IMG/VR virus record: IMGVR_UViG_2711768002_000004
DNA from: a virus
Lineage: Duplodnaviria; Heunggongvirae; Uroviricota; Caudoviricetes
DNA length: 39,841 nucleotides
Reading direction: 5' to 3' (one strand)
In this document: positions 1-39,841 of the stretch, piece by piece
Layout: the number at the start of each line of letters is the position of its first letter
Position numbering within the stretch: position 1 is the first letter of the stretch
Translations under genes and position numbers: made by a program
The notes under the pieces: model-generated
The model's input: the letters and a program-made list of their open reading frames with translations, nothing else
The model's database searches: none
What the model was told of the DNA's origin: nothing

Positions 1-153
1 TATACAGCAATGTCGCCAACGTTGTACTCGTTGTGCCAGCCCGGTTTCAGATACACACCATATTTTCCAGTCCGCGCATGGAAACAGTATTCACCATCGT
101 TTCCTGTCATCACATCAGCAACAGTGTGCATCACCACTTCCGGGGTGTTTACC
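1..153 (-). other. Flanking DNA outside the IS66-family element; minus strand carries an open frame of about 50 codons running off the window start (possible IS-disrupted gene fragment)
   Basis: Minus-strand frame translates without stops as NTPEVVMHTVADVMTGNDGEYCFHARTGKYGVYLKPGWHNEYNVGDIAV; lies outside the GTAAGCG motif at 154 that I take as the IS terminus. Could be chance. Confidence 0.25.
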
Positions 154-560
154 GTAAGCGTGCAGCAAGAACCGTATTGACGGGAATGTGTTATTCAGTC
201 GGCAGTGCTACGCGCCAGGGGAGCAGTTCGCCGACCCGGTTTATCGGCCAGTCGGCTATGACGTCAAGGACATAGCGGAGGTAGCTTTCTGGCTCCACTC
301 CGTTCAGTTTGCACGTCCCGATCAGGCTGTACAGCAGCGCTCCCCGCTCTCCTCCATGATCCGAACCGAAGAACAGGTAGTTTTTGCGGCCCAGACTGAC
401 CATCCGCAACGCATTTTCAGCGATGTTATTGTCCGCCTCAGCCCAGCCATCATCTGCATAGTACGTCAGCGCCGGCCACTGGTTCAGGGCGTATGCGAAC
501 GCTTTCGCCAGTTCTGAGTGTCGCGACAGGGTTTTCATCTTTTCACGCAGCCAGCTTTCC
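154..560 (-). mobile_element. IS66-family insertion sequence, right-hand portion (terminal repeat region plus 3' part of tnpC), cut by the N gap
   Basis: tnpC C-terminal reading frame at 191-560; GTAAGCG motif at 154-160, which I recall as the typical IS66-family terminus (from memory, not verified). Confidence 0.65.
191..560 (-). CDS. tnpC: IS66-family transposase TnpC, C-terminal fragment (frame stays open up to the gap)
   Basis: Translation MKTLSRHSELAKAFAYALNQW...DNNIAENALR...GRKNYLFFGSDHGGERGALLYSLIGTCKLNGVEPESYLRYVLDVIADWPINRVGELLPW matches the conserved C-terminus of IS66 TnpC as I recall it; N-terminal ~400 aa absent from the window. Confidence 0.85.
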
Positions 561-682
561 NNNNNNNNNNNNNNNNNNNNNNNNNNNNNNNNNNNNNNNN
601 NNNNNNNNNNNNNNNNNNNNNNNNNNNNNNNNNNNNNNNNNNNNNNNNNNNNNNNNNNNNNNNNNNNNNNNNNNNNNNNNNN
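561..682. other. Assembly gap (run of 122 N)
   Basis: Directly visible. Both the prophage right end and the tnpC N-terminal ~1.2 kb are missing, so true size is probably larger than 122 nt. Confidence 1.
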
Positions 683-690
683 TTAAGCGT

Positions 691-1428
691 TCATTCACTC
701 TCTTTCAAACCAGTTTTAACTGTTTGTGGTTTTGGGTAAGGCTGGACTTTGAATAGCTTTGTGTTAAGGCGTTTTCTGGCTCTCTTGTCCAGAAACCGGA
801 TGTAACGAAACTGACGGAATTTATGAACACTGGCTCTGTCGATATTAGCCCGCAGATGTTCACCTCGCTGTCCTCCTCGTTTGATTGCATTCTTGCAAAT
901 CTCGTGATACCACTCGCCATCAAGTTCATAGAATGTTGTTTCATGACTGCCTACATAATCAAAATTGCTTGCCTGGTACACGACACCAAGACAGCCACAA
1001 CGCTCATCTGCAAACGACTGAACCCACTGCACCTGCGGATAAAGTTGTCTGATTAGTTTGAGCGCGTAACTGATTGCCCTTGATTCGGAGTTTCTCGGCA
1101 TACAGTCATGCAGCCATAACCGGTTAAGCTCCATATATTCGCGGTTCTGCGTGCCAGTTACGACGCGTGCACCATTGTTTGGATTAAGGGCATAACCCCA
1201 TTGCATTACGCCAACCAGCTCCCGTTCTGAAAATATGCCCAGATGAAGGTAGGAATTATTTACGAAACGATGGCTGTAATGTTTATTGACGACGACCAGC
1301 CGGGCCAGCCAGCAACTTATTGTCTCAACCCGTAACTCACGGGAGCCATAACCGACGATATTGTCGTTATAGTGAATAAGTTCAGGCGTGCTGATGATAC
1401 GGGATGTAACTTGCTTTCTGTTCCCCAC
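691..1428 (-). CDS. mom: Mom-like DNA modification protein (start uncertain; GTG at 1428 with AAGGAAA upstream proposed)
   Basis: Long ORF 691-1623 overlaps com in another frame; gene position and the com overlap mirror Mu com-mom. No in-frame ATG downstream of com until far inside the ORF, so an alternative start is inferred. Confidence 0.65.
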
Positions 1429-1582
1429 GACAGGATTTCCTTGTGTATGTGGGGTGCTCTGTGGCGCTCTGAGATGTGATTTGATTGAGGGTTTTACAGC
1501 GCGGACATTTAACTTCCAGATAACTGAAGCTGGCTCGTGCCAGTAGCTTGTTACAATGTCGGCACCGTATGTTTCGATACAT
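1382..1582 (-). CDS. com: Com-like zinc-finger translational activator of mom
   Basis: [34 protein letters not shown]... has the CxxC-(17)-CxxC zinc finger and N-terminal pattern of Mu Com. Start moved to ATG at 1582 (AGGAGG 10 nt upstream); the ORF track start at 1627 is a TTG. Confidence 0.8.
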
Positions 1583-1624
1583 GGCCGCATAACCTCCTGC
1601 TTTGTTGTTGATATCTTTATCACT

Positions 1625-1720
1625 CAATCGATCGACAAAAACGATCGATTTGATTTATTTAATTGATACAACAAATAACACGAAATGTCATTAGCGAAAA
1701 TTTATGAGTTTGATCACTAA
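1625..1720 (-). promoter_or_regulatory. Putative com/mom promoter-regulatory region with clustered GATC (Dam) sites
   Basis: GATC at 1630-1633 and 1643-1646 (13 bp apart) and 1712-1715 in an AT-rich region just upstream of com; in Mu the mom promoter is controlled through upstream Dam sites and OxyR. Confidence 0.4.
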
Positions 1721-5056: not shown

Positions 5057-5629
5057 TCACGGTACTTTTGGTGACGGAGCTGGTGAGGCAGGAAAATAAC
5101 GATAAAGGGTGGAAAGGCCAATATCAAATATCAGTGCGATTTGTTTACGGGACTCGCCATTAGCCAGCAAACGGGCGATTTGCTCCCGCTCTTTCTCTGT
5201 CAGTTTCTGAGGTCTGCCGCCATGACGCCCCTGAGCACGGGCAGCAGCAAGACCCGCGCGTGTACGTTCAATAATGAGTTCCCGCTCCATTTCCGCCAGC
5301 GCGCCCATTATATGGAAAAAGAAACGTCCCATGGGAGTGGATGTATCAATATTGTCCGTAATGCTGCGGAAGTTAACGCCGCGTTGCCGGAGTTCTTCTG
5401 TTAAAAGGACAAGGTGCTGCATACTGCGTCCAAGGCGATCCAGTTTCCAGACCAGCAGGGTATCCCCTGGCCGGAGTCGCTTTAATGCGCGTTTAAGTCC
5501 GGGACGCTCCCTTGTCTTACCGCTTATTCTGTCTTCGAAAAACAGCTCACATCCTGCACATTCCAGCGCATTTCTTTGTAGCGCCGTATTCTGGTCATTT
5601 GTTGACACCCTGATATACCCAATCAGCAT
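5057..5629 (-). CDS. gin: Serine recombinase DNA invertase (Gin/Hin/Pin/Cin family)
   Basis: MLIGYIRVSTNDQNTALQ...VWKLDRLGRSMQHL...MGRFFFHIMGALAEMERELIIERT...STLYRYF: catalytic Ser region and C-terminal HTH of the Gin family; adjacent to the invertible tail-fibre segment. Confidence 0.9.
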   Translation of the reverse strand: MLIGYIRVSTNDQNTALQRNALECAGCELFFEDRISGKTRERPGLKRALKRLRPGDTLLVWKLDRLGRSMQHLVLLTEELRQRGVNFRSITDNIDTSTPMGRFFFHIMGALAEMERELIIERTRAGLAAARAQGRHGGRPQKLTEKEREQIARLLANGESRKQIALIFDIGLSTLYRYFPASPAPSPKVP

Positions 5630-21618: not shown

Positions 21619-21739
21619 ATTGCCTCCGCATAAAGGATGAATATAAAATAAACAGGCGGTCAGTGTACGCTTAACTGGTAAAGTCGGTGCCTGCCTCCGG
21701 GTGGATCATGTATGCGGGTTCGACCCCCGCCACTGACCG

Positions 21740-23071
21740 TTAATCAATTTGTCCTTCCAGCACCTCAAGCATTCCGCCCCGGATATCCGATTTCAGCTTA
21801 TCCATATTGATAACCCGGTAAGCATTCACAATCACATCCAGTTTGTCGGGCTGACGTTTCAGACTGTACGGTGCATTAACGGCAATCTGCACACTGCCAT
21901 CCTGATTTTCCACGATATACATCAGATTGTTGTGCCGTTTGTCCCACAGTACCGCTTTTGGCCTTGCCAGCATTGCCGGTAAGCGCCCGAAGTCCTCCGG
22001 CGTCAGAGCGATGCCGTCATTCTGATGTTTCACACTGTCCGCATGGAGCACATTTTTACCGCTCATCGCCAGCAGGCGGGCCGGTGGCGTTCCCGTCCGG
22101 CTTTCCACTGCCTGCGCAATGCTTTCAGTCATAAAGCCCAGCGTGCGGATATCGTTACCACCTCGCCGGGTCTGCATGATGTTTTTTGCCCAGATGCGGA
22201 ACGCCAGCTGCCGCTCCGGGCTGTTGTTCATCTCCTGAACCACCATTTCCCGTAACGCCGGGCTTTTCACCTCGATCAGTTTGCGGATCAGCGCCTGGTC
22301 TGTGCCGAACGCTGCCGAGCCGGGGTTATATGACCAGCCCACATCCGGTGTCATGGTTCTGGCGCCATCTGAATATGTGGTCACCGGCATTTCTCTGACT
22401 TCTCCGGTCTGTTTATCCACGCCAGCCTCAACATTGCGGGTGGAGAGATGATCCTCACCGGATGAAACGGATAACCCCATTGCATCCAGACGGGCCTGAG
22501 ACAATGGCCGCACACGGCAGCGGCAGTTCCAGCCATTGGGCGGGTAGTGTGTTTTCCAGAACGGATCGTCATAGCGGAATACCAGACCGTTAAGGGCGGA
22601 ATGCGACGGGCGGGTACGGCTGTCCATGACCGCCACATACTGCCAGAACGGATGCGTGTCCGTGTTGTTCATCATCTGCGTGTAACGCCCGGCATTGTAA
22701 GCCACACGGGTGTTCACGTTGTAAATCAGCGCCAGACGACGGGGACTGCCCTGCTGCACTTCTTCCGCGTTACCGTCGCTGTCCACCACAATCTGCTTTC
22801 CCCACCATCCCAGCTTTTGCAGGCGTGGCGTCAGTGTGCGGATAAATTCTTTCTGTGAAATCCCCTCATCAATGGCCCGCTGCACTTCGGCCTGTAATGT
22901 GGTTACCACATCCAGCCGTGCCGTTTTTGCTGCCGTGAATGAGCGGGCATGAACATCCGCGTCTGTTTCGAACCAGTTCCAGCTGATATGCGCCCCTTTG
23001 GCGCGGAAGTATGCCACCGTCTCTTTTGAGGGAAGCGTGGCGGCATAACCTAAATCAATCCCCTGAGCCAT
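21740..23071 (-). CDS. Head morphogenesis protein (Mu F-like)
   Basis: 443 aa; contains NGWNCRCRV motif I recall from the Mu F family; follows the portal gene. Confidence 0.8.
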   Translation of the reverse strand: MAQGIDLGYAATLPSKETVAYFRAKGAHISWNWFETDADVHARSFTAAKTARLDVVTTLQAEVQRAIDEGISQKEFIRTLTPRLQKLGWWGKQIVVDSDGNAEEVQQGSPRRLALIYNVNTRVAYNAGRYTQMMNNTDTHPFWQYVAVMDSRTRPSHSALNGLVFRYDDPFWKTHYPPNGWNCRCRVRPLSQARLDAMGLSVSSGEDHLSTRNVEAGVDKQTGEVREMPVTTYSDGARTMTPDVGWSYNPGSAAFGTDQALIRKLIEVKSPALREMVVQEMNNSPERQLAFRIWAKNIMQTRRGGNDIRTLGFMTESIAQAVESRTGTPPARLLAMSGKNVLHADSVKHQNDGIALTPEDFGRLPAMLARPKAVLWDKRHNNLMYIVENQDGSVQIAVNAPYSLKRQPDKLDVIVNAYRVINMDKLKSDIRGGMLEVLEGQID

Positions 23072-34658: not shown

Positions 34659-34886
34659 TTAGCTGACTTGTTTCGCACCAACAGAACGGCATATTCCGCT
34701 GTAAACTTCTGTCGCACCTTCGCGATCAAGTCCGGCAGATATCACCATTCGTGTGCGGTCATTAAATTCAAAAAGTAAATCGCCACATTCTTTATTTTCG
34801 GCCAGTGAAATCACCTTCACGTTATCGAAATTAACCAGGTAAAAGCGTCCGTAAATATCAGGAATATTAAATACCGCCATAATCAC
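34659..34886 (-). CDS. Small early protein directly downstream of B (position of Mu kil)
   Basis: 75 aa; positional analogy only. Confidence 0.45.
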   Translation of the reverse strand: MIMAVFNIPDIYGRFYLVNFDNVKVISLAENKECGDLLFEFNDRTRMVISAGLDREGATEVYSGICRSVGAKQVS

Positions 34887-35824
34887 ACCTGTGAGAGTAA
34901 TTCAGGGTTGGTATAAACCTCTTTAAAGGCCGCATTAATATGTTTTTCTGTCAGCGCCGCGCCTTCACCGCTGGCGGTGAGCCACGCCTGGTTAAGCGTA
35001 TGTGTCAGAACGCGTAACGCTCCCGGCTTTTCAGCGATAGCCTGCATGACGGCCAGCTCGGCCTCACCACTGATCCCCCACGCCATGGCAATGGCCAGCA
35101 CATCCGCCTTTTTGGCCTTGCGAAGTTGTTTTGTACGGGCAAGACGGCTGAACAGGCGCGATAAATCATCAAAGGCGCGGCGTCCACCTTTAAACAATCC
35201 GCGCGGGTTACCAATAAGCACCATCCCGATCCCCGTGGCGTCCTGAATTGCCCGGAGTTGCTCCAGACCGTCAATACCAAGATGATCCGCCTCATCCACA
35301 ATCACCAGTCCACGCGTTCCCATCAGGCGACGGCGGATGGCGCGGGATAATGCCCCTTTGTTCGCGCGGGTGTAATCAATCCCCAGCGCATCGGCCAGCT
35401 CCAGCAGACACTCCGTGACGCTGGAGTGCGCGGGTGACAGGGTGATCATCCAGGTGTTTGGTTGCTCCTGGCAGTAATTACGGGCAGTGGCCGTTTTACC
35501 CACACCCGGTACGCCCACAATAACGTTAATACAGCCCATCAGGCGAACCGCCTGAAACAGTGCGCGCAGCTCCTGGACTGTCTGAGTTTCCACAAACTGC
35601 GGCGGTTCCGGCAGTGCGCTTTGTTTATTCCAGTTCTCATACCAGGAGCGCAGGGAAGCAGCCACAGCAGCGTTATCGCCTTTATATTTTCCCTTACGGA
35701 AAGCCGATAATGTGCCGTCGGAAATTCCCGCCTCTCTGGCGATGGCATACTGCGTCAGTACGCCGCCATCAATAAGTTCATCAATGGTCTTGATTACATC
35801 GTTAATATCGGTCATATTATTCAC
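34883..35824 (-). CDS. B: Transposition protein B (MuB-like ATP-dependent target DNA activator)
   Basis: 313 aa; P-loop VGVPGVGKTATARNY, DEADHLG, and end-to-end similarity to Mu B as recalled (PEPPQFVETQTV..., KPGALRVL...). Confidence 0.9.
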   Translation of the reverse strand: MNNMTDINDVIKTIDELIDGGVLTQYAIAREAGISDGTLSAFRKGKYKGDNAAVAASLRSWYENWNKQSALPEPPQFVETQTVQELRALFQAVRLMGCINVIVGVPGVGKTATARNYCQEQPNTWMITLSPAHSSVTECLLELADALGIDYTRANKGALSRAIRRRLMGTRGLVIVDEADHLGIDGLEQLRAIQDATGIGMVLIGNPRGLFKGGRRAFDDLSRLFSRLARTKQLRKAKKADVLAIAMAWGISGEAELAVMQAIAEKPGALRVLTHTLNQAWLTASGEGAALTEKHINAAFKEVYTNPELLSQV

Positions 35825-35897: not shown

Positions 35898-37985
35898 TCA
35901 GGCCAGCGGATCACTTTCTTTTAATTTCGCTTCGAGCAGTTGCAATCCCCGCTGGAAATTACGCTCGTATTCTTCATCAGGTTCATCGTCAGCGACCGGT
36001 TGCTGAACGGTCACCGTATTACCCACAGGGCGGTATATGTTTTCCAGCCAGGGCTCCTGCGGCTTGTGCTCCAGCACGTTGACAACCTCATCCTCGGCAT
36101 CACGGATTTTTTCCTCTGCGCGTTTACGCATGCCTTTAAGGCGCTGCTGCTGTTTGTAGTATTCCGCGCTGACAGGGAAGGCTTCGCGTTTATTGCCGTC
36201 CCATACCGCCTCGCAAATCACGCTGCCATCCGGGCGGCGCACGGTAATTCGTTCGGCATCATGAATGTCATAGCTGATAAGTACCTTACGGCCATGCTCG
36301 TCACGCAGCTCGGGCGCGTAGTAAATATTATTCAGCCAGCGTATTTCACAGCGTCTTACAGGGCGCTCCACCATCGGCCGGAACATATCCCGCAGTTCAA
36401 CATCGGACAGCCATTCAATTTCCGTGTCCTCTTCCGCCAGGCGTTTTTTTCTGAACTCCGCCGGGCTGTAATGTTTACCGTTCGGCTTCATGGGTAATTC
36501 ATCGTGCGGCCGGTTGTTGTACCACTCAACACCGTCACGAATGGCATCAATCAGTTCAGACCAGGACGGTAAATCACGCATCGCTGACTGCTGCCGGGCG
36601 TTCAGCCGTTTGCCCTGTTGCAGGGCACTGAATGCCGAGCGTAAATCGCGGTTGGTTTTACGTAACGTCTCGCGATCTGCTCCTTTCCCGAAATAGGTGC
36701 GGTATTTACGGGCTATGCGCATCGGTAATGTGCGGTTAAGCCGTTCGATAATGCCCCGTCCCTGCGGATTACCGGCAATCCCTGTCGGGTGATTAATCCC
36801 CAGTCGTGGCAGTATCCCCACAATCTCCTTATCCAGGACGTCGGCGGTTTCCCCGGAGCCATTATCCGAGTAATACAGAAACGGTTTGCCATGATGGCGA
36901 ATACCGTGCTGTATGGCACCGGCTACGGCGAAAACATTTTCAGCCAGGTCAAGGCTCCAGCCCACCACAAAGCGCGTGCCACCGTCGATAACAAAGGTCA
37001 CTTCCGGTGCGAATGGCCGCCCGTGAACCGGGTGCGCGCATTTCAGCTTCATGCCGTGACCGTCACCAATCCAGACATAATTCACCGGCATTCTGGACCA
37101 GTCGCGGCGCGTGAATCCCTCAAGCTGACGGTATTCACTGCCAGTTACCCGGCCTTTTTGTTTCACCACTTCCGGCAGTTTCTTCATTGCGCGGCGAATG
37201 GTGTCATAAGAGGGCATGATATCGAGCATATAAGGCTCATCAGCGTGCCGGTGCTGCCATTCAGCAACAAAATCCTCGTAAGCCTCGGTCATTGGTCGGC
37301 CGTTTGACTGGCGATACTGCGCCAGAAATTCGGGCAGCCAGTTAATATCTTCGGCTTTTATTTCCTGGCGTTTACCCGGTGCCAGTAAAAGCAGGCGTTC
37401 AGCGGCGTTCTGTGCCTTGTTAAAGGCCGCAATCCAGCGTTTCAGCGTGATTTCACTCAACGCGCGGCTGTTTCCCTTTTTGGCGTTCGCCGTCTCAACC
37501 ATTGCCACAATGCGCTCGTCCAGTTGTGATCGTGCCAGGCTGTTAACGAGGAACCGGATAGCTTTAGCGCAGCTGAAACCGGGTTGTTGCGTGAATTTCA
37601 GCACCTCACTGACGATCGCAATGCGTGCGTCTGCCACCTGGCGCTGGTTTTCAGTCAGGGCATTGAGGCGTTCGACCATCAGTTGTGGTGATCCGCGATA
37701 TGCCTCCACCGCATCAACCACGGCAGACGAGCGTCTGGCCTTTGTCACCACCGGAGCCGGTGATTCATCGGCTTTTTGCGTCATCAGTTGCAGGGCATAA
37801 CGTTCGCGTAATGCCTGCTGTGTCACTTCAGGTAAACAGTCAATGCTGTATTCAAAACCTTTAGCGCCTTTCTTGCGGCGTCTGCTGGTTTCGCTGGTTG
37901 CATACTTCCTGATTGAATAGCGAACGCCTTGCTCCGTTCCCGGCATCCCCGGTAATCCAACCAGTTCTTTAACTGAAGCAAACAT
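35898..37985 (-). CDS. A: DDE transposase (MuA-like)
   Basis: 695 aa; N-terminal VSPKE..LPG-like opening (ASVKELVGLPGMPGT) and position directly after ner. Confidence 0.9.
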   Translation of the reverse strand: MFASVKELVGLPGMPGTEQGVRYSIRKYATSETSRRRKKGAKGFEYSIDCLPEVTQQALRERYALQLMTQKADESPAPVVTKARRSSAVVDAVEAYRGSPQLMVERLNALTENQRQVADARIAIVSEVLKFTQQPGFSCAKAIRFLVNSLARSQLDERIVAMVETANAKKGNSRALSEITLKRWIAAFNKAQNAAERLLLLAPGKRQEIKAEDINWLPEFLAQYRQSNGRPMTEAYEDFVAEWQHRHADEPYMLDIMPSYDTIRRAMKKLPEVVKQKGRVTGSEYRQLEGFTRRDWSRMPVNYVWIGDGHGMKLKCAHPVHGRPFAPEVTFVIDGGTRFVVGWSLDLAENVFAVAGAIQHGIRHHGKPFLYYSDNGSGETADVLDKEIVGILPRLGINHPTGIAGNPQGRGIIERLNRTLPMRIARKYRTYFGKGADRETLRKTNRDLRSAFSALQQGKRLNARQQSAMRDLPSWSELIDAIRDGVEWYNNRPHDELPMKPNGKHYSPAEFRKKRLAEEDTEIEWLSDVELRDMFRPMVERPVRRCEIRWLNNIYYAPELRDEHGRKVLISYDIHDAERITVRRPDGSVICEAVWDGNKREAFPVSAEYYKQQQRLKGMRKRAEEKIRDAEDEVVNVLEHKPQEPWLENIYRPVGNTVTVQQPVADDEPDEEYERNFQRGLQLLEAKLKESDPLA

Positions 37986-37987
37986 AA

Positions 37988-38218
37988 TTACGCGACCTTA
38001 CGAATGTAGCGGCTGGGCCAAATCTCCTCGGGCGGCACCCCCAGGCATTCCGCGATAATCCCCTCATACTTGGGAACATGGCGGTATACCGCGTTGTACA
38101 GATTGTTCTGACCCACGCCAGCTTTACGGGCCAGCGCCCTCATGCTTCCTTCTCTGGCTCTGACTTCCCCCAAAATTCTTTGAGGATGCCAATCAGGCTT
38201 AACTTCATTTCTCGCCAT
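37988..38218 (-). CDS. ner: Ner-like DNA-binding early regulator
   Basis: 76 aa; ...DWHPQRILGEVRAREGSMRALARKAGVGQNNLYNAVYRHVPKYEGIIAECLGVPPEEIWPSRY matches Mu Ner pattern; stop is 2 nt before the A start. Confidence 0.85.
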   Translation of the reverse strand: MARNEVKPDWHPQRILGEVRAREGSMRALARKAGVGQNNLYNAVYRHVPKYEGIIAECLGVPPEEIWPSRYIRKVA

Positions 38219-38403: not shown

Positions 38404-38949
38404 ATGAACAAGCAAACAACAACATCTCTTTCTTTTCCTGGTGGTAGAAAAGAAAGCATTGCTGAGCGTCTGAAAAGGCTGATTGGCTCCCGCAGCGTCA
38501 GAGCTGCAGCAAGAGATTGGGGGCTTTCATTTTCAACACTAAACAATTATCTGTCTCGTGGCACTGAGCCATCCTTAAGTGTCGCCCTTCAGATTGCGTC
38601 TATCGAAGGAGTAAGTGTTGAGTGGCTATGTGGATTCAGTGATGCATCACAAGTGAATCGGTGTGAGATCAAGGAAAATCAAGATGAAAGCAAGAAGATA
38701 ATTATGACGATTATCAGCGCACTTGATGAAAAAGACTTAGAGCAGCTATCGAAAAATTTGGTTCTGAATGGAGCCAAGTACTTAGCTCGGTTGTTAGAGC
38801 CTGAAAATCAAGATCTAATCCGCTTAGAAGGAAGGAAAAGAATAGCTGCATTACAGCTTGAAGGTATGTCTGACGAACGCGTCAGAGAGATTTTGGAAGA
38901 AACTGAGAGAAGTCGCAAATCTAACGCGGTAGAACCAAAAGCGGGTTAA
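38404..38949 (+). CDS. Prophage repressor, XRE/CI-type helix-turn-helix (functional analogue of Mu c)
   Basis: 181 aa; HTH ...SVRAAARDWGLSFSTLNNYLSRGTEPSLSVALQIASIEGVSVEWL; divergent from ner-A-B; no S24 peptidase motif seen. Confidence 0.75.
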   Translation: MNKQTTTSLSFPGGRKESIAERLKRLIGSRSVRAAARDWGLSFSTLNNYLSRGTEPSLSVALQIASIEGVSVEWLCGFSDASQVNRCEIKENQDESKKIIMTIISALDEKDLEQLSKNLVLNGAKYLARLLEPENQDLIRLEGRKRIAALQLEGMSDERVREILEETERSRKSNAVEPKAG

Positions 38950-39185
38950 TAGCATTAGCCCGCATTTTGCACTATATCGAGTATTTCGCATTGTTTGGAA
39001 CGCCTTAAAAGACTAAAACCACAGTATCAAATGAGTTGCCGATTTTATAATAAATGACTAATTATTGCACAATCGGTATCAAATAGACCTTATCCGCACA
39101 TCTAGCCATCACCTGTTTTATTTCAGTATCTTACAGGTGATTTCACCTCCTTTCACTAAACCCCTTGTCGGTATCAAATGATTCA
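38950..39185 (-). repeat. Prophage left end with three transposase-binding-like direct repeats
   Basis: (C)GGTATCAAAT at 39023-39032, 39074-39084 and 39169-39179; on the phage strand the element would begin 5'-TGAATCATTTGATACCG. Confidence 0.6.
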
Positions 39186-39506
39186 CCTGGTTATATGTCG
39201 CCAGTCGATACCTTCCAGCAGCATCGCCAGCTGCGCCTGTGTAAGGAACACTTTGCCATCACGGGCTGACGGCCAGGCGAAGCGCCCACGCTCCAGCCGT
39301 TTGGTCAGGAGGCACAGTCCGTCACTGGTGGACCACAGCAGTTTAACCTGACTGCCGCTGCGGCCCCGGAAAATGAAAACATGGCCGGACATGGGATCGT
39401 CTTTCAGCGCCGTCTGTACTTTCGCAGCCAGGCCGTTGAAGCCATTTCTCATATCGGTGATACCGGCAACCAGCCAAATTTTGATCCCGGAAGGTAACGG
39501 GATCAT
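39183..39506 (-). CDS. tnpB: IS66-family TnpB (orf2); 3' end apparently fused to the prophage terminus
   Basis: MIPLPSGIKIWLVAGITDMRNGFNGLAAKVQTALKDDPMSGHVFIFRGRSGSQVKLLWSTSDGLCLLTKRLERGRFAWP...; stop codon TGA (39185-39183) coincides with the putative TG terminus of the prophage. Confidence 0.85.
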   Translation of the reverse strand: MIPLPSGIKIWLVAGITDMRNGFNGLAAKVQTALKDDPMSGHVFIFRGRSGSQVKLLWSTSDGLCLLTKRLERGRFAWPSARDGKVFLTQAQLAMLLEGIDWRHITR

Positions 39507-39841
39507 CGCTTCAGTTCCTGTATCAGCAGAGTCAGGAGCTTTTCGCTGACATTGCCATTGAAGCGGAGCGTCCCGTGCCGGAACGTTACCTCACAGCTGA
39601 TACTGAGGGTTTTCGGGTCCTCTGCGAGCGATTCTGGCTGTTCGGCAGCTGCATCGAGAGTCACAGGAAGTAGCTGGGGGCTCTCTGAAGAAGGTAATAG
39701 CTGAGGTGTACTGGCAATAGCGGACACTACCATTTGTTCTTTTTTTAAGCAGCCATCTGATGATATTTTTCCCTGAAGGCTGCCGGGGAGATATTCCCCA
39801 GACGAGAGTGACGACGCTGACGATTGTAGAAAATCTCAATG
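39503..39841 (-). CDS. tnpA: IS66-family TnpA (orf1), partial; frame open to the window end
   Basis: Upstream of and overlapping tnpB; ...EKLLTLLIQELKR C-terminus; reading frame has no stop up to 39841. Confidence 0.55.

Follow-up and report, generated by a model that had tools for sequence, protein, structure and literature searches.

Introduction

Bacteriophage Mu has TG...CA termini and duplicates 5 bp of target DNA upon insertion. Sp18 of Escherichia coli O157:H7 Sakai is described as a Mu-like prophage that is intact and whose invertible host-range region is distinct (PMC2669165). A prophage of this type is carried by the stretch of DNA analysed here, which is referred to as the window (39,841 nucleotides). 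Like Mu and Sp18, it encodes a MuA-type transposase and a MuB ATPase, has its repressor and Ner-like genes at the end opposite Com/Mom, contains a Gin-type invertase region and repeats a putative transposase-binding motif near both ends. Phages of its kind are likewise found at many unrelated chromosomal sites, flanked by short target duplications. Nucleotide identity to Mu is about 72% and limited to com/mom, and the prophage differs from Mu in having TA (or TG)...TA termini and a 4-bp duplication. The likeness to Sp18 is by description; the repressor-side end has matches of about 92% in O157 genomes. Mu_JNE082796 (LC727881) belongs to the same family. Its ends are 78–95% identical to those of the window phage, it is nested in a mobile element, namely a Stx2c-converting prophage, and its depositors likewise annotated a 4-bp duplication. 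Unlike the window phage, Mu_JNE082796 has TG instead of TA at the repressor-side terminus, and its host element is a lambdoid prophage and not an IS. A literature search for JNE082796 found nothing, and the window prophage does not appear in the papers found on Mu-like phages and S. sonnei.

The element on either side of the present phage is an ISEc22-like IS66. Members of the IS66 family have terminal inverted repeats starting GTAAGCG and generate an 8-bp target duplication. The window copy resembles ISEc22/IS66 in its tnpA-tnpB-tnpC order, its TnpB_IS66 and DDE_Tnp_IS66 domains, its GTAAGCG repeat and its 99–100% identity to annotated copies. Unlike these, its tnpB and tnpA are split, and in relatives of the locus tnpC lacks 1080 bp and IS1 lies at the left part of the element. 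Nested IS and prophage insertions are typical of Shigella genomes, and the locus is a further example with no difference of substance.

Results

Organisation of the locus

The window is a two-contig scaffold (1–560 and 683–39841), and its features are listed in Table 1. On the sequence matches found, it is assigned to Shigella sonnei because a 43-residue peptide (1–131, minus strand) has 100% matches only among partial tail-fibre proteins source-named S. sonnei, and because the 107-aa ORF product TnpB' is matched residue for residue in 108 public contigs source-named S. sonnei, including the closed chromosome CP176614.1. The peptide encoded by 1–153 is 100% identical to the partial S. sonnei proteins P0001 and P0011, the latter starting with exactly the peptide of the window. 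Position 1 is a contig end common to dozens of S. sonnei draft assemblies, since the tail-fibre gene past this position is repeated. The same tail-fibre gene is uninterrupted in EIEC CFSAN029787, which represents an empty site; IS66 is thus inserted 80 nt into the gene. Several IS types (IS66, IS600, IS1 and IS110) are stacked in this one prophage remnant.

Table 1. Features of the window, with the strand and the basis or remarks where available.
Feature	Coordinates	Strand	Remarks
Prophage tail-fibre gene start, 5'-truncated (phage_tail_N)	1–153	-	99.3% identity to the EIEC CFSAN029787 gene
ISEc22-like IS66 right end	154–560	-	GTAAGCG terminal repeat from 154; tnpC 3' end, stop at 191–193
Assembly gap, 122 N	561–682	.	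Equivalent in L038 is 299 bp (L038 9273–9571)
Mu/Sp18-like transposable prophage	683–39195	-	Pfam matches, gene content of identical loci
Mom	691–1590	-	
Gin-type invertase	5057–5629	-	
MuB	34883–35815	-	
MuA	35898–37985	-	PF02316, PF09299
Ner-like gene	37988–38218	-	
Repressor	38404–38949	+	
Repressor-side terminal 28 bp, TCGGTATCAAATGATTCACCTGGTTATA	39168–39195	+	Repeat family D1; mirrors the other end, TCGGTATCAAAAAAATCGCCGCGCTATA
TnpB' ORF, 107 aa	39183–39506	-	103 IS66-derived residues + HITR
Target duplication, left copy	39196–39199	-	GACA on the minus strand; window 39196 = L028 770
IS66 segment	39196–39701	-	tnpB 5' part (311 nt) + tnpA 3' remnant (39503–39701)
IS600 (IS3 family) end within tnpA	39702–39841	-	Window stops inside IS600			

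Content and relatives of the prophage

With 120 bp that fall in the gap, the prophage amounts to 38,633 bp and is apparently full length. Over 38.5 kb it is colinear with, and 99.7% identical to, a prophage of 38,634 bp located in sgrR of E. coli 600029. Com/Mom lie at the end opposite the repressor, Mu-type head and tail genes are present, and the genes neighbouring MuA show PF09077 (Phage-MuB_C) and HTH_35. The Mom ORF comprises 310 aa. No protein of this length is on record, and gene callers give 299 or 245 aa. MuA, MuB and the repressor are protein-identical in near-identical copies of the phage (99.5–99.7% DNA identity; L039, L041, L043–L051), and such copies occupy many different E. coli chromosomal sites. 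Among the nine right flanks and eleven left flanks that were compared, divergence sets in at the very first base outside the phage. These sequence comparisons suggest a recently active phage shared by E. coli and S. sonnei. The present copy may still be mobile, since it looks intact and is 99.7% identical to E. coli copies.

In Mu_JNE082796 the mom region next to the right end is replaced by an unrelated stretch of about 1.2 kb (L004 799–2000 compared with window 683–1414), and the terminal ~100 bp are similar. The right-end cargo thus appears to be exchangeable in the Sp18-like phage family. Between the genes for head morphogenesis and virion morphogenesis, relatives have a 'tRNA-OTHER' in their RefSeq annotation (L039 17579–17658), the equivalent in the window being at about 21620–21740; ARAGORN run over the whole window found no tRNA.

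The repressor-side end of the phage lies within tnpB

The earlier note on this DNA had put IS66 tnpA and tnpB immediately outside the left end of the prophage, and had proposed that the phage supplies the stop codon of a 3'-truncated tnpB. The c-repressor end of the phage does adjoin tnpB. However, tnpA is present only as its 3' 199 nt, being cut by IS600 at 39701|39702. The ORF at 39183–39506 matches TnpB_IS66 in Pfam (PF05717, E=1.2e-37). Its product ends in ...DWRHITR*, compared with ...DWRQPKRLLTSLTML* for intact TnpB, and its TGA (39183–39185) corresponds to nucleotides 11–13 of the phage counted from the terminus. The proposal of a stop codon lying in phage DNA was therefore correct.

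The same TGA had also been taken as the phage terminus itself, with 5'-TG as its end. The terminus is instead found 10 bp further out, since IS66 identity halts at 39196 and not at 39186, and identity to other phage copies (233 E. coli genomes and Mu_JNE082796) reaches 39195. The ten bases 39186–39195 (CCTGGTTATA) are phage DNA. In the alignment with the related Mu_JNE082796 they fall on its annotated end, they lie within a 246-bp phage end that recurs with 99–100% identity in E. coli prophages with other insertion sites, and 11 independent left flanks part from each other exactly past 39195. These alignments place the terminus at 39195|39196, reading inward 5'-TATAACCAGG, i.e. 5'-TA and not 5'-TG. 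Independent support for the corrected terminus comes from the putative transposase-binding motif TCGGTATCAAA, because, at either end of the phage, its outermost copy begins 28 nt in from the terminus. Two more copies of this putative motif are seen at 39021–39032 and 39073–39084. Each phage end has three TCGGTATCAAA(T)-like copies, in inverted orientation, for which a binding role is putative, and an imperfect inverted repeat of 28 bp, starting TCGGTATCAAA, is common to the two ends.

The phage is inserted after nt 311 of the 345 coding nt of tnpB, 37 nt ahead of the stop codon; the uninterrupted target reads CTGGCGACAGCCTAAGC. The insertion is thus inside tnpB and not, as had been suggested, at the tnpB/tnpC junction. 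Since it falls within tnpB, the tnpB frame reads 10 nt of the phage end and stops on the phage TGA. The closed chromosome CP176614.1 and contig CWZC01000017.1 have this left junction with 100% identity.

The mom-side junction and closure of the gap

The other junction falls in the gap and was read from a relative. L038 is a stretch of the S. sonnei contig CWWF01000021.1, which was assembled independently and was reached via the tail-fibre protein P0011. It is 100% identical to window 683–1654 and 99.8% identical to window 1–560. Between these stretches L038 has 299 bp, compared with 122 N in the window, and judged by this closed relative the N run would not represent the true distance. The 299 bp begin with the last 120 bp of the phage, ending ...GCGCTATA. 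The right end of the phage was defined through a look-up of a 684-aa tail protein, which gave ten other insertion sites; nine other phage copies run 120 bp past window 683, all end ...AAATCGCCGCGCTATA and then diverge.

After the phage end, L038 continues with GACAGCCTAAGCGG..., corresponding to positions 767–911 of L028 (tnpB 3' end, spacer and tnpC start). L028, a copy with a full 512-aa TnpC, served as the IS66 reference. This IS66 stretch opens GACAGCCTAAGCGGCTGCTGACCTCCCTGACCATGCTGTAA... and includes the tnpB 3' end, 37 nt with GACA and the stop codon counted in. L038 then jumps to L028 1974 over 17/18-bp direct repeats, amounting to a 1080-bp deletion in tnpC, and beyond it come the 3' end of tnpC, the end of the IS and the tail-fibre gene. 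The gene order Mom, phage end, IS66, tail-fibre gene, DUF4376 gene, ipaH is contained in one contig.

The left junction in the window corresponds to L028 770, so that GACA (L028 767–770) flanks the phage on both sides, and nothing else of IS66 is missing at the insertion point between the two junctions. On these alignments GACA reads as a 4-bp target duplication, the signature of a single transposition. The earlier note had called for a 5-bp duplication to be looked for. A duplication is present and is of 4 bp, and alignment of both pieces to the intact IS66 gives L028 767–770 as the insertion point. Because GACA is found on both sides and the missing 3' end of tnpB lies beyond the phage, the two IS66 halves belong to a single copy that one insertion has divided. 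The aligned DNA directly shows the junction on either side, the duplicated 4 bp, and the match of each IS half to the same IS sequence.

In CWWF01000021.1 the right end of the phage is at contig position 39,239. For a phage of 38,633 bp this leaves about 606 bp on its left side, which is near the 646 bp of IS66 and IS600 in the window. By this length arithmetic and the matching GACA, the contig should also carry the tnpB' junction. We infer that the gap of the window strain has the sequence seen in L038.

An erroneous join of 1–560 to 683–39841 during assembly or scaffolding would make the neighbourhood of the two IS66 pieces spurious. The N run (122, compared with a distance of 299 bp) and the nature of contig 1–560, which is short, repeat-bounded and a separate contig of 0.5–2.6 kb in many drafts, are consistent with such an error. 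However, the independent assembly has the same neighbours in the same order on one contig, and CWZC01000017.1 (47.9 kb) has room for about 8.4 kb past the phage right end by length arithmetic. A misjoin is therefore considered extremely improbable. The earlier note had named either a misjoin or two different IS copies as the finding that would speak against its reading, and neither is seen in the relative that closes the gap.

Both IS66 pieces match one copy

The segment 39196–39701 is 99.6% identical to IS66 of O104:H4 pAA plasmids and 100% identical to L028 265–770. On the other side of the phage, the 154–560 region is 100% identical to L028 2026–2585, and its tnpC is 99.3–99.8% identical to annotated ISEc22/IS66 tnpC. 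The Pfam domains DDE_Tnp_IS66 (PF03050) and DDE_Tnp_IS66_C (PF13817) are found at 191–538. The presence of the tnpC C-terminus beyond the gap, as claimed earlier, is thereby confirmed, the piece being on the same strand and bounded by GTAAGCG at 154. At this IS end ten other copies likewise end ...GCTTAC, after which their flanks diverge. The order tnpA-tnpB-tnpC on one strand is seen in L028, L017 and L001, and the window fragments are colinear with L028.

The two pieces could in principle come from two IS66 copies, brought together by IS recombination, inversion or two separate events. IS66-type elements are multi-copy in Shigella, with at least nine in CP026866.1, and the gap of the window falls at the critical place. 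Against this, both fragments are in the same orientation and 100% identical to the single IS66 sequence L028, the sequence past the phage end in L038 starts with the 4 bp preceding the left breakpoint and goes on with exactly the missing 3' end of tnpB, and a 4-bp duplication is the rule of the phage family. An origin from two copies is thus very unlikely. The transposition of the phage into a resident IS66, as first proposed in the earlier note, is upheld by the continuity in L038, the GACA duplication and the complete identity of both pieces to one IS sequence.

In the Shigella sequence CP026866.1 (L017–L026) the IS66 copies, at least nine, are 92% related, with tnpC split into ORFs of 372 aa and 115 aa, and the split appears to be inherited by all copies. 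A query with the 115-aa internal tnpC ORF returned Shigella IS66 copies with split tnpC and was uninformative on the junction.

The IS66 terminus present in the window is the right end only. In L006 (1–95) an IS1 end abuts the left part of IS66, and the left terminal repeat has for this reason probably been lost at the locus. The tnpA gene is interrupted by IS600, as positions 39702–39841 match an annotated IS600-family transposase. In CP176614.1 the IS600 (L005 8542–9805) is a simple 1264-bp insertion with a 3-bp duplication, L028 265–267 being present on both sides. IS600 in tnpA is common to the window and CP176614.1. CWZC01000017.1 lacks it and has IS1 abutting IS66 at its left part. IS600 is therefore a younger lineage marker than the phage insertion. 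With tnpB split by the 38.6-kb phage and tnpA by IS600, this IS66 copy is non-autonomous.

Deletion within tnpC

The deletion in tnpC is of 1080 bp, is in frame and lies between the 17/18-bp direct repeats (L038 9520–9537; L028 894–911 and 1974–1991). Its product, a 152-aa deleted TnpC, is Q3YYZ0_SHISS (UniProt, S. sonnei Ss046) and occurs in 674 contigs, compared with 108 for TnpB'. In contigs L030–L033 the deleted IS66 is found beside the tail-fibre flank with tnpB uninterrupted, and these are candidate empty sites. L028, which has a full-length tnpC and the same flank, and L030–L033 may be repeat-collapsed graph paths and not true alleles.

A deletion caused by the phage itself was also weighed. 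In such an adjacent deletion the right end of the phage would abut tnpC directly, about 1.1–1.25 kb of IS66 having been removed by the phage. The size of the N run (122), which is near the 120 bp of missing phage end, would fit this, as would S. sonnei 53G, in which the right end of the phage joins the tail-fibre gene directly, at a point 624 bp past the IS66 site. In L038, however, the phage end is followed by 145 bp of intact IS66 (L028 767–911) before the deletion begins, and the direct repeats bound this deletion. It is also more widespread than TnpB', as judged by the contig counts, and is present with an uninterrupted tnpB. Phage-mediated loss of this part of IS66 is thus hardly credible, and an insertion into tnpB of an IS66 copy that otherwise continues past the phage end is preferred.

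In 53G (HE616528.1; L012 14409|14410) the right end of the phage thus runs straight into tail-fibre sequence downstream of the IS66 site, and no IS66 lies between the two. This arrangement could be a separate insertion, or it could stem from a deletion of which one edge coincides exactly with the phage end.

The events at the locus may be ordered as follows. IS66 would first have entered the tail-fibre gene of the prophage, and the 1080-bp deletion in tnpC would come second. The phage would then have inserted into tnpB in a sub-lineage (that of the 108 contigs with TnpB'), and finally IS600 into tnpA in the branch with the window strain and CP176614.1. The order of the second and third steps is tentative, because the short contigs may be repeat-collapsed graph paths.

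Target duplication and termini of the phage family

Insertions of Sp18-like phages for which both flanks could be read were compared (window 39168–39199 together with L038 9365–9396, L039, L040, L041, L010, L044/L011, L047/L015 and L003/L004). All eight, which include the present locus and the fragmentary prophage L010, have a 4-bp target duplication (AACA, GACG, TACG, ACTG, CATC, CATA, TACC and GACA). The termini in the family are 5'-TA (or TG)TAACCAGG...GCGCTATA-3', the repressor end being either TA or TG and the mom end TA. None of the eight insertions has the canonical Mu termini TG...CA with a 5-bp duplication.

A 5-bp duplication was tried on every insertion. It fits only when the invariant terminal base of the phage is counted as target, and was rejected, as the fifth base disagrees in seven of the eight insertions and is ambiguous in the eighth.

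TA termini and the 4-bp duplication set the family apart from Mu proper and not from Mu-like phages in general. No statement of the difference between TA termini with 4 bp and the TG...CA termini with 5 bp of Mu was found in the literature. We suggest tentatively, and with rather less than even confidence, that the widespread Sp18-like family of E. coli and Shigella has a MuA-type transposase in which recognition of the ends and the geometry of strand transfer are altered (3'-TA termini, a stagger of 4 bp and not 5 bp), perhaps undescribed as such, for which the insertion in IS66 would be one of many clean natural examples.

Discussion

The arrangement is best explained by integration of a Mu-type (Sp18-like) phage, by its own MuA-type transposase, into tnpB of a resident ISEc22-like IS66 in the S. 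sonnei chromosome, with the 4-bp duplication typical of the family, and we hold this with high confidence. That MuA catalysed the insertion is what we infer. The MuA-type transposase would have inserted the phage after nt 311 of tnpB, duplicating GACA, and the truncated tnpB frame therefore runs 10 nt into the phage end up to the phage TGA, giving the 107-aa TnpB'. The recipient IS66 is a wreck, with IS600 in tnpA in the window strain and, in relatives, IS1 abutting the left part and the deletion in tnpC. The misplaced terminus, the 5-bp duplication and the wording 'tnpB/tnpC junction' in the earlier note leave the conclusion unchanged.

The element, a Mu-like prophage in an IS66 in a degraded lambdoid prophage, is ordinary; its element types and their nesting are well known and the pieces are publicly annotated. 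The insertion carries little biological weight, as a phage within an IS is to be expected when transposable phages insert almost anywhere and S. sonnei chromosomes are crowded with IS elements. Nested insertion does explain the recurrent assembly break and the mis-sized gap at this locus. The 107-aa 'TnpB' and the 152-aa 'TnpC' found in databases are artefacts of fusion and deletion, respectively, and not functional variants. For S. sonnei, the phage insertion and IS600 serve as lineage markers within the species (TnpB' in 108 contigs, deleted TnpC in 674).
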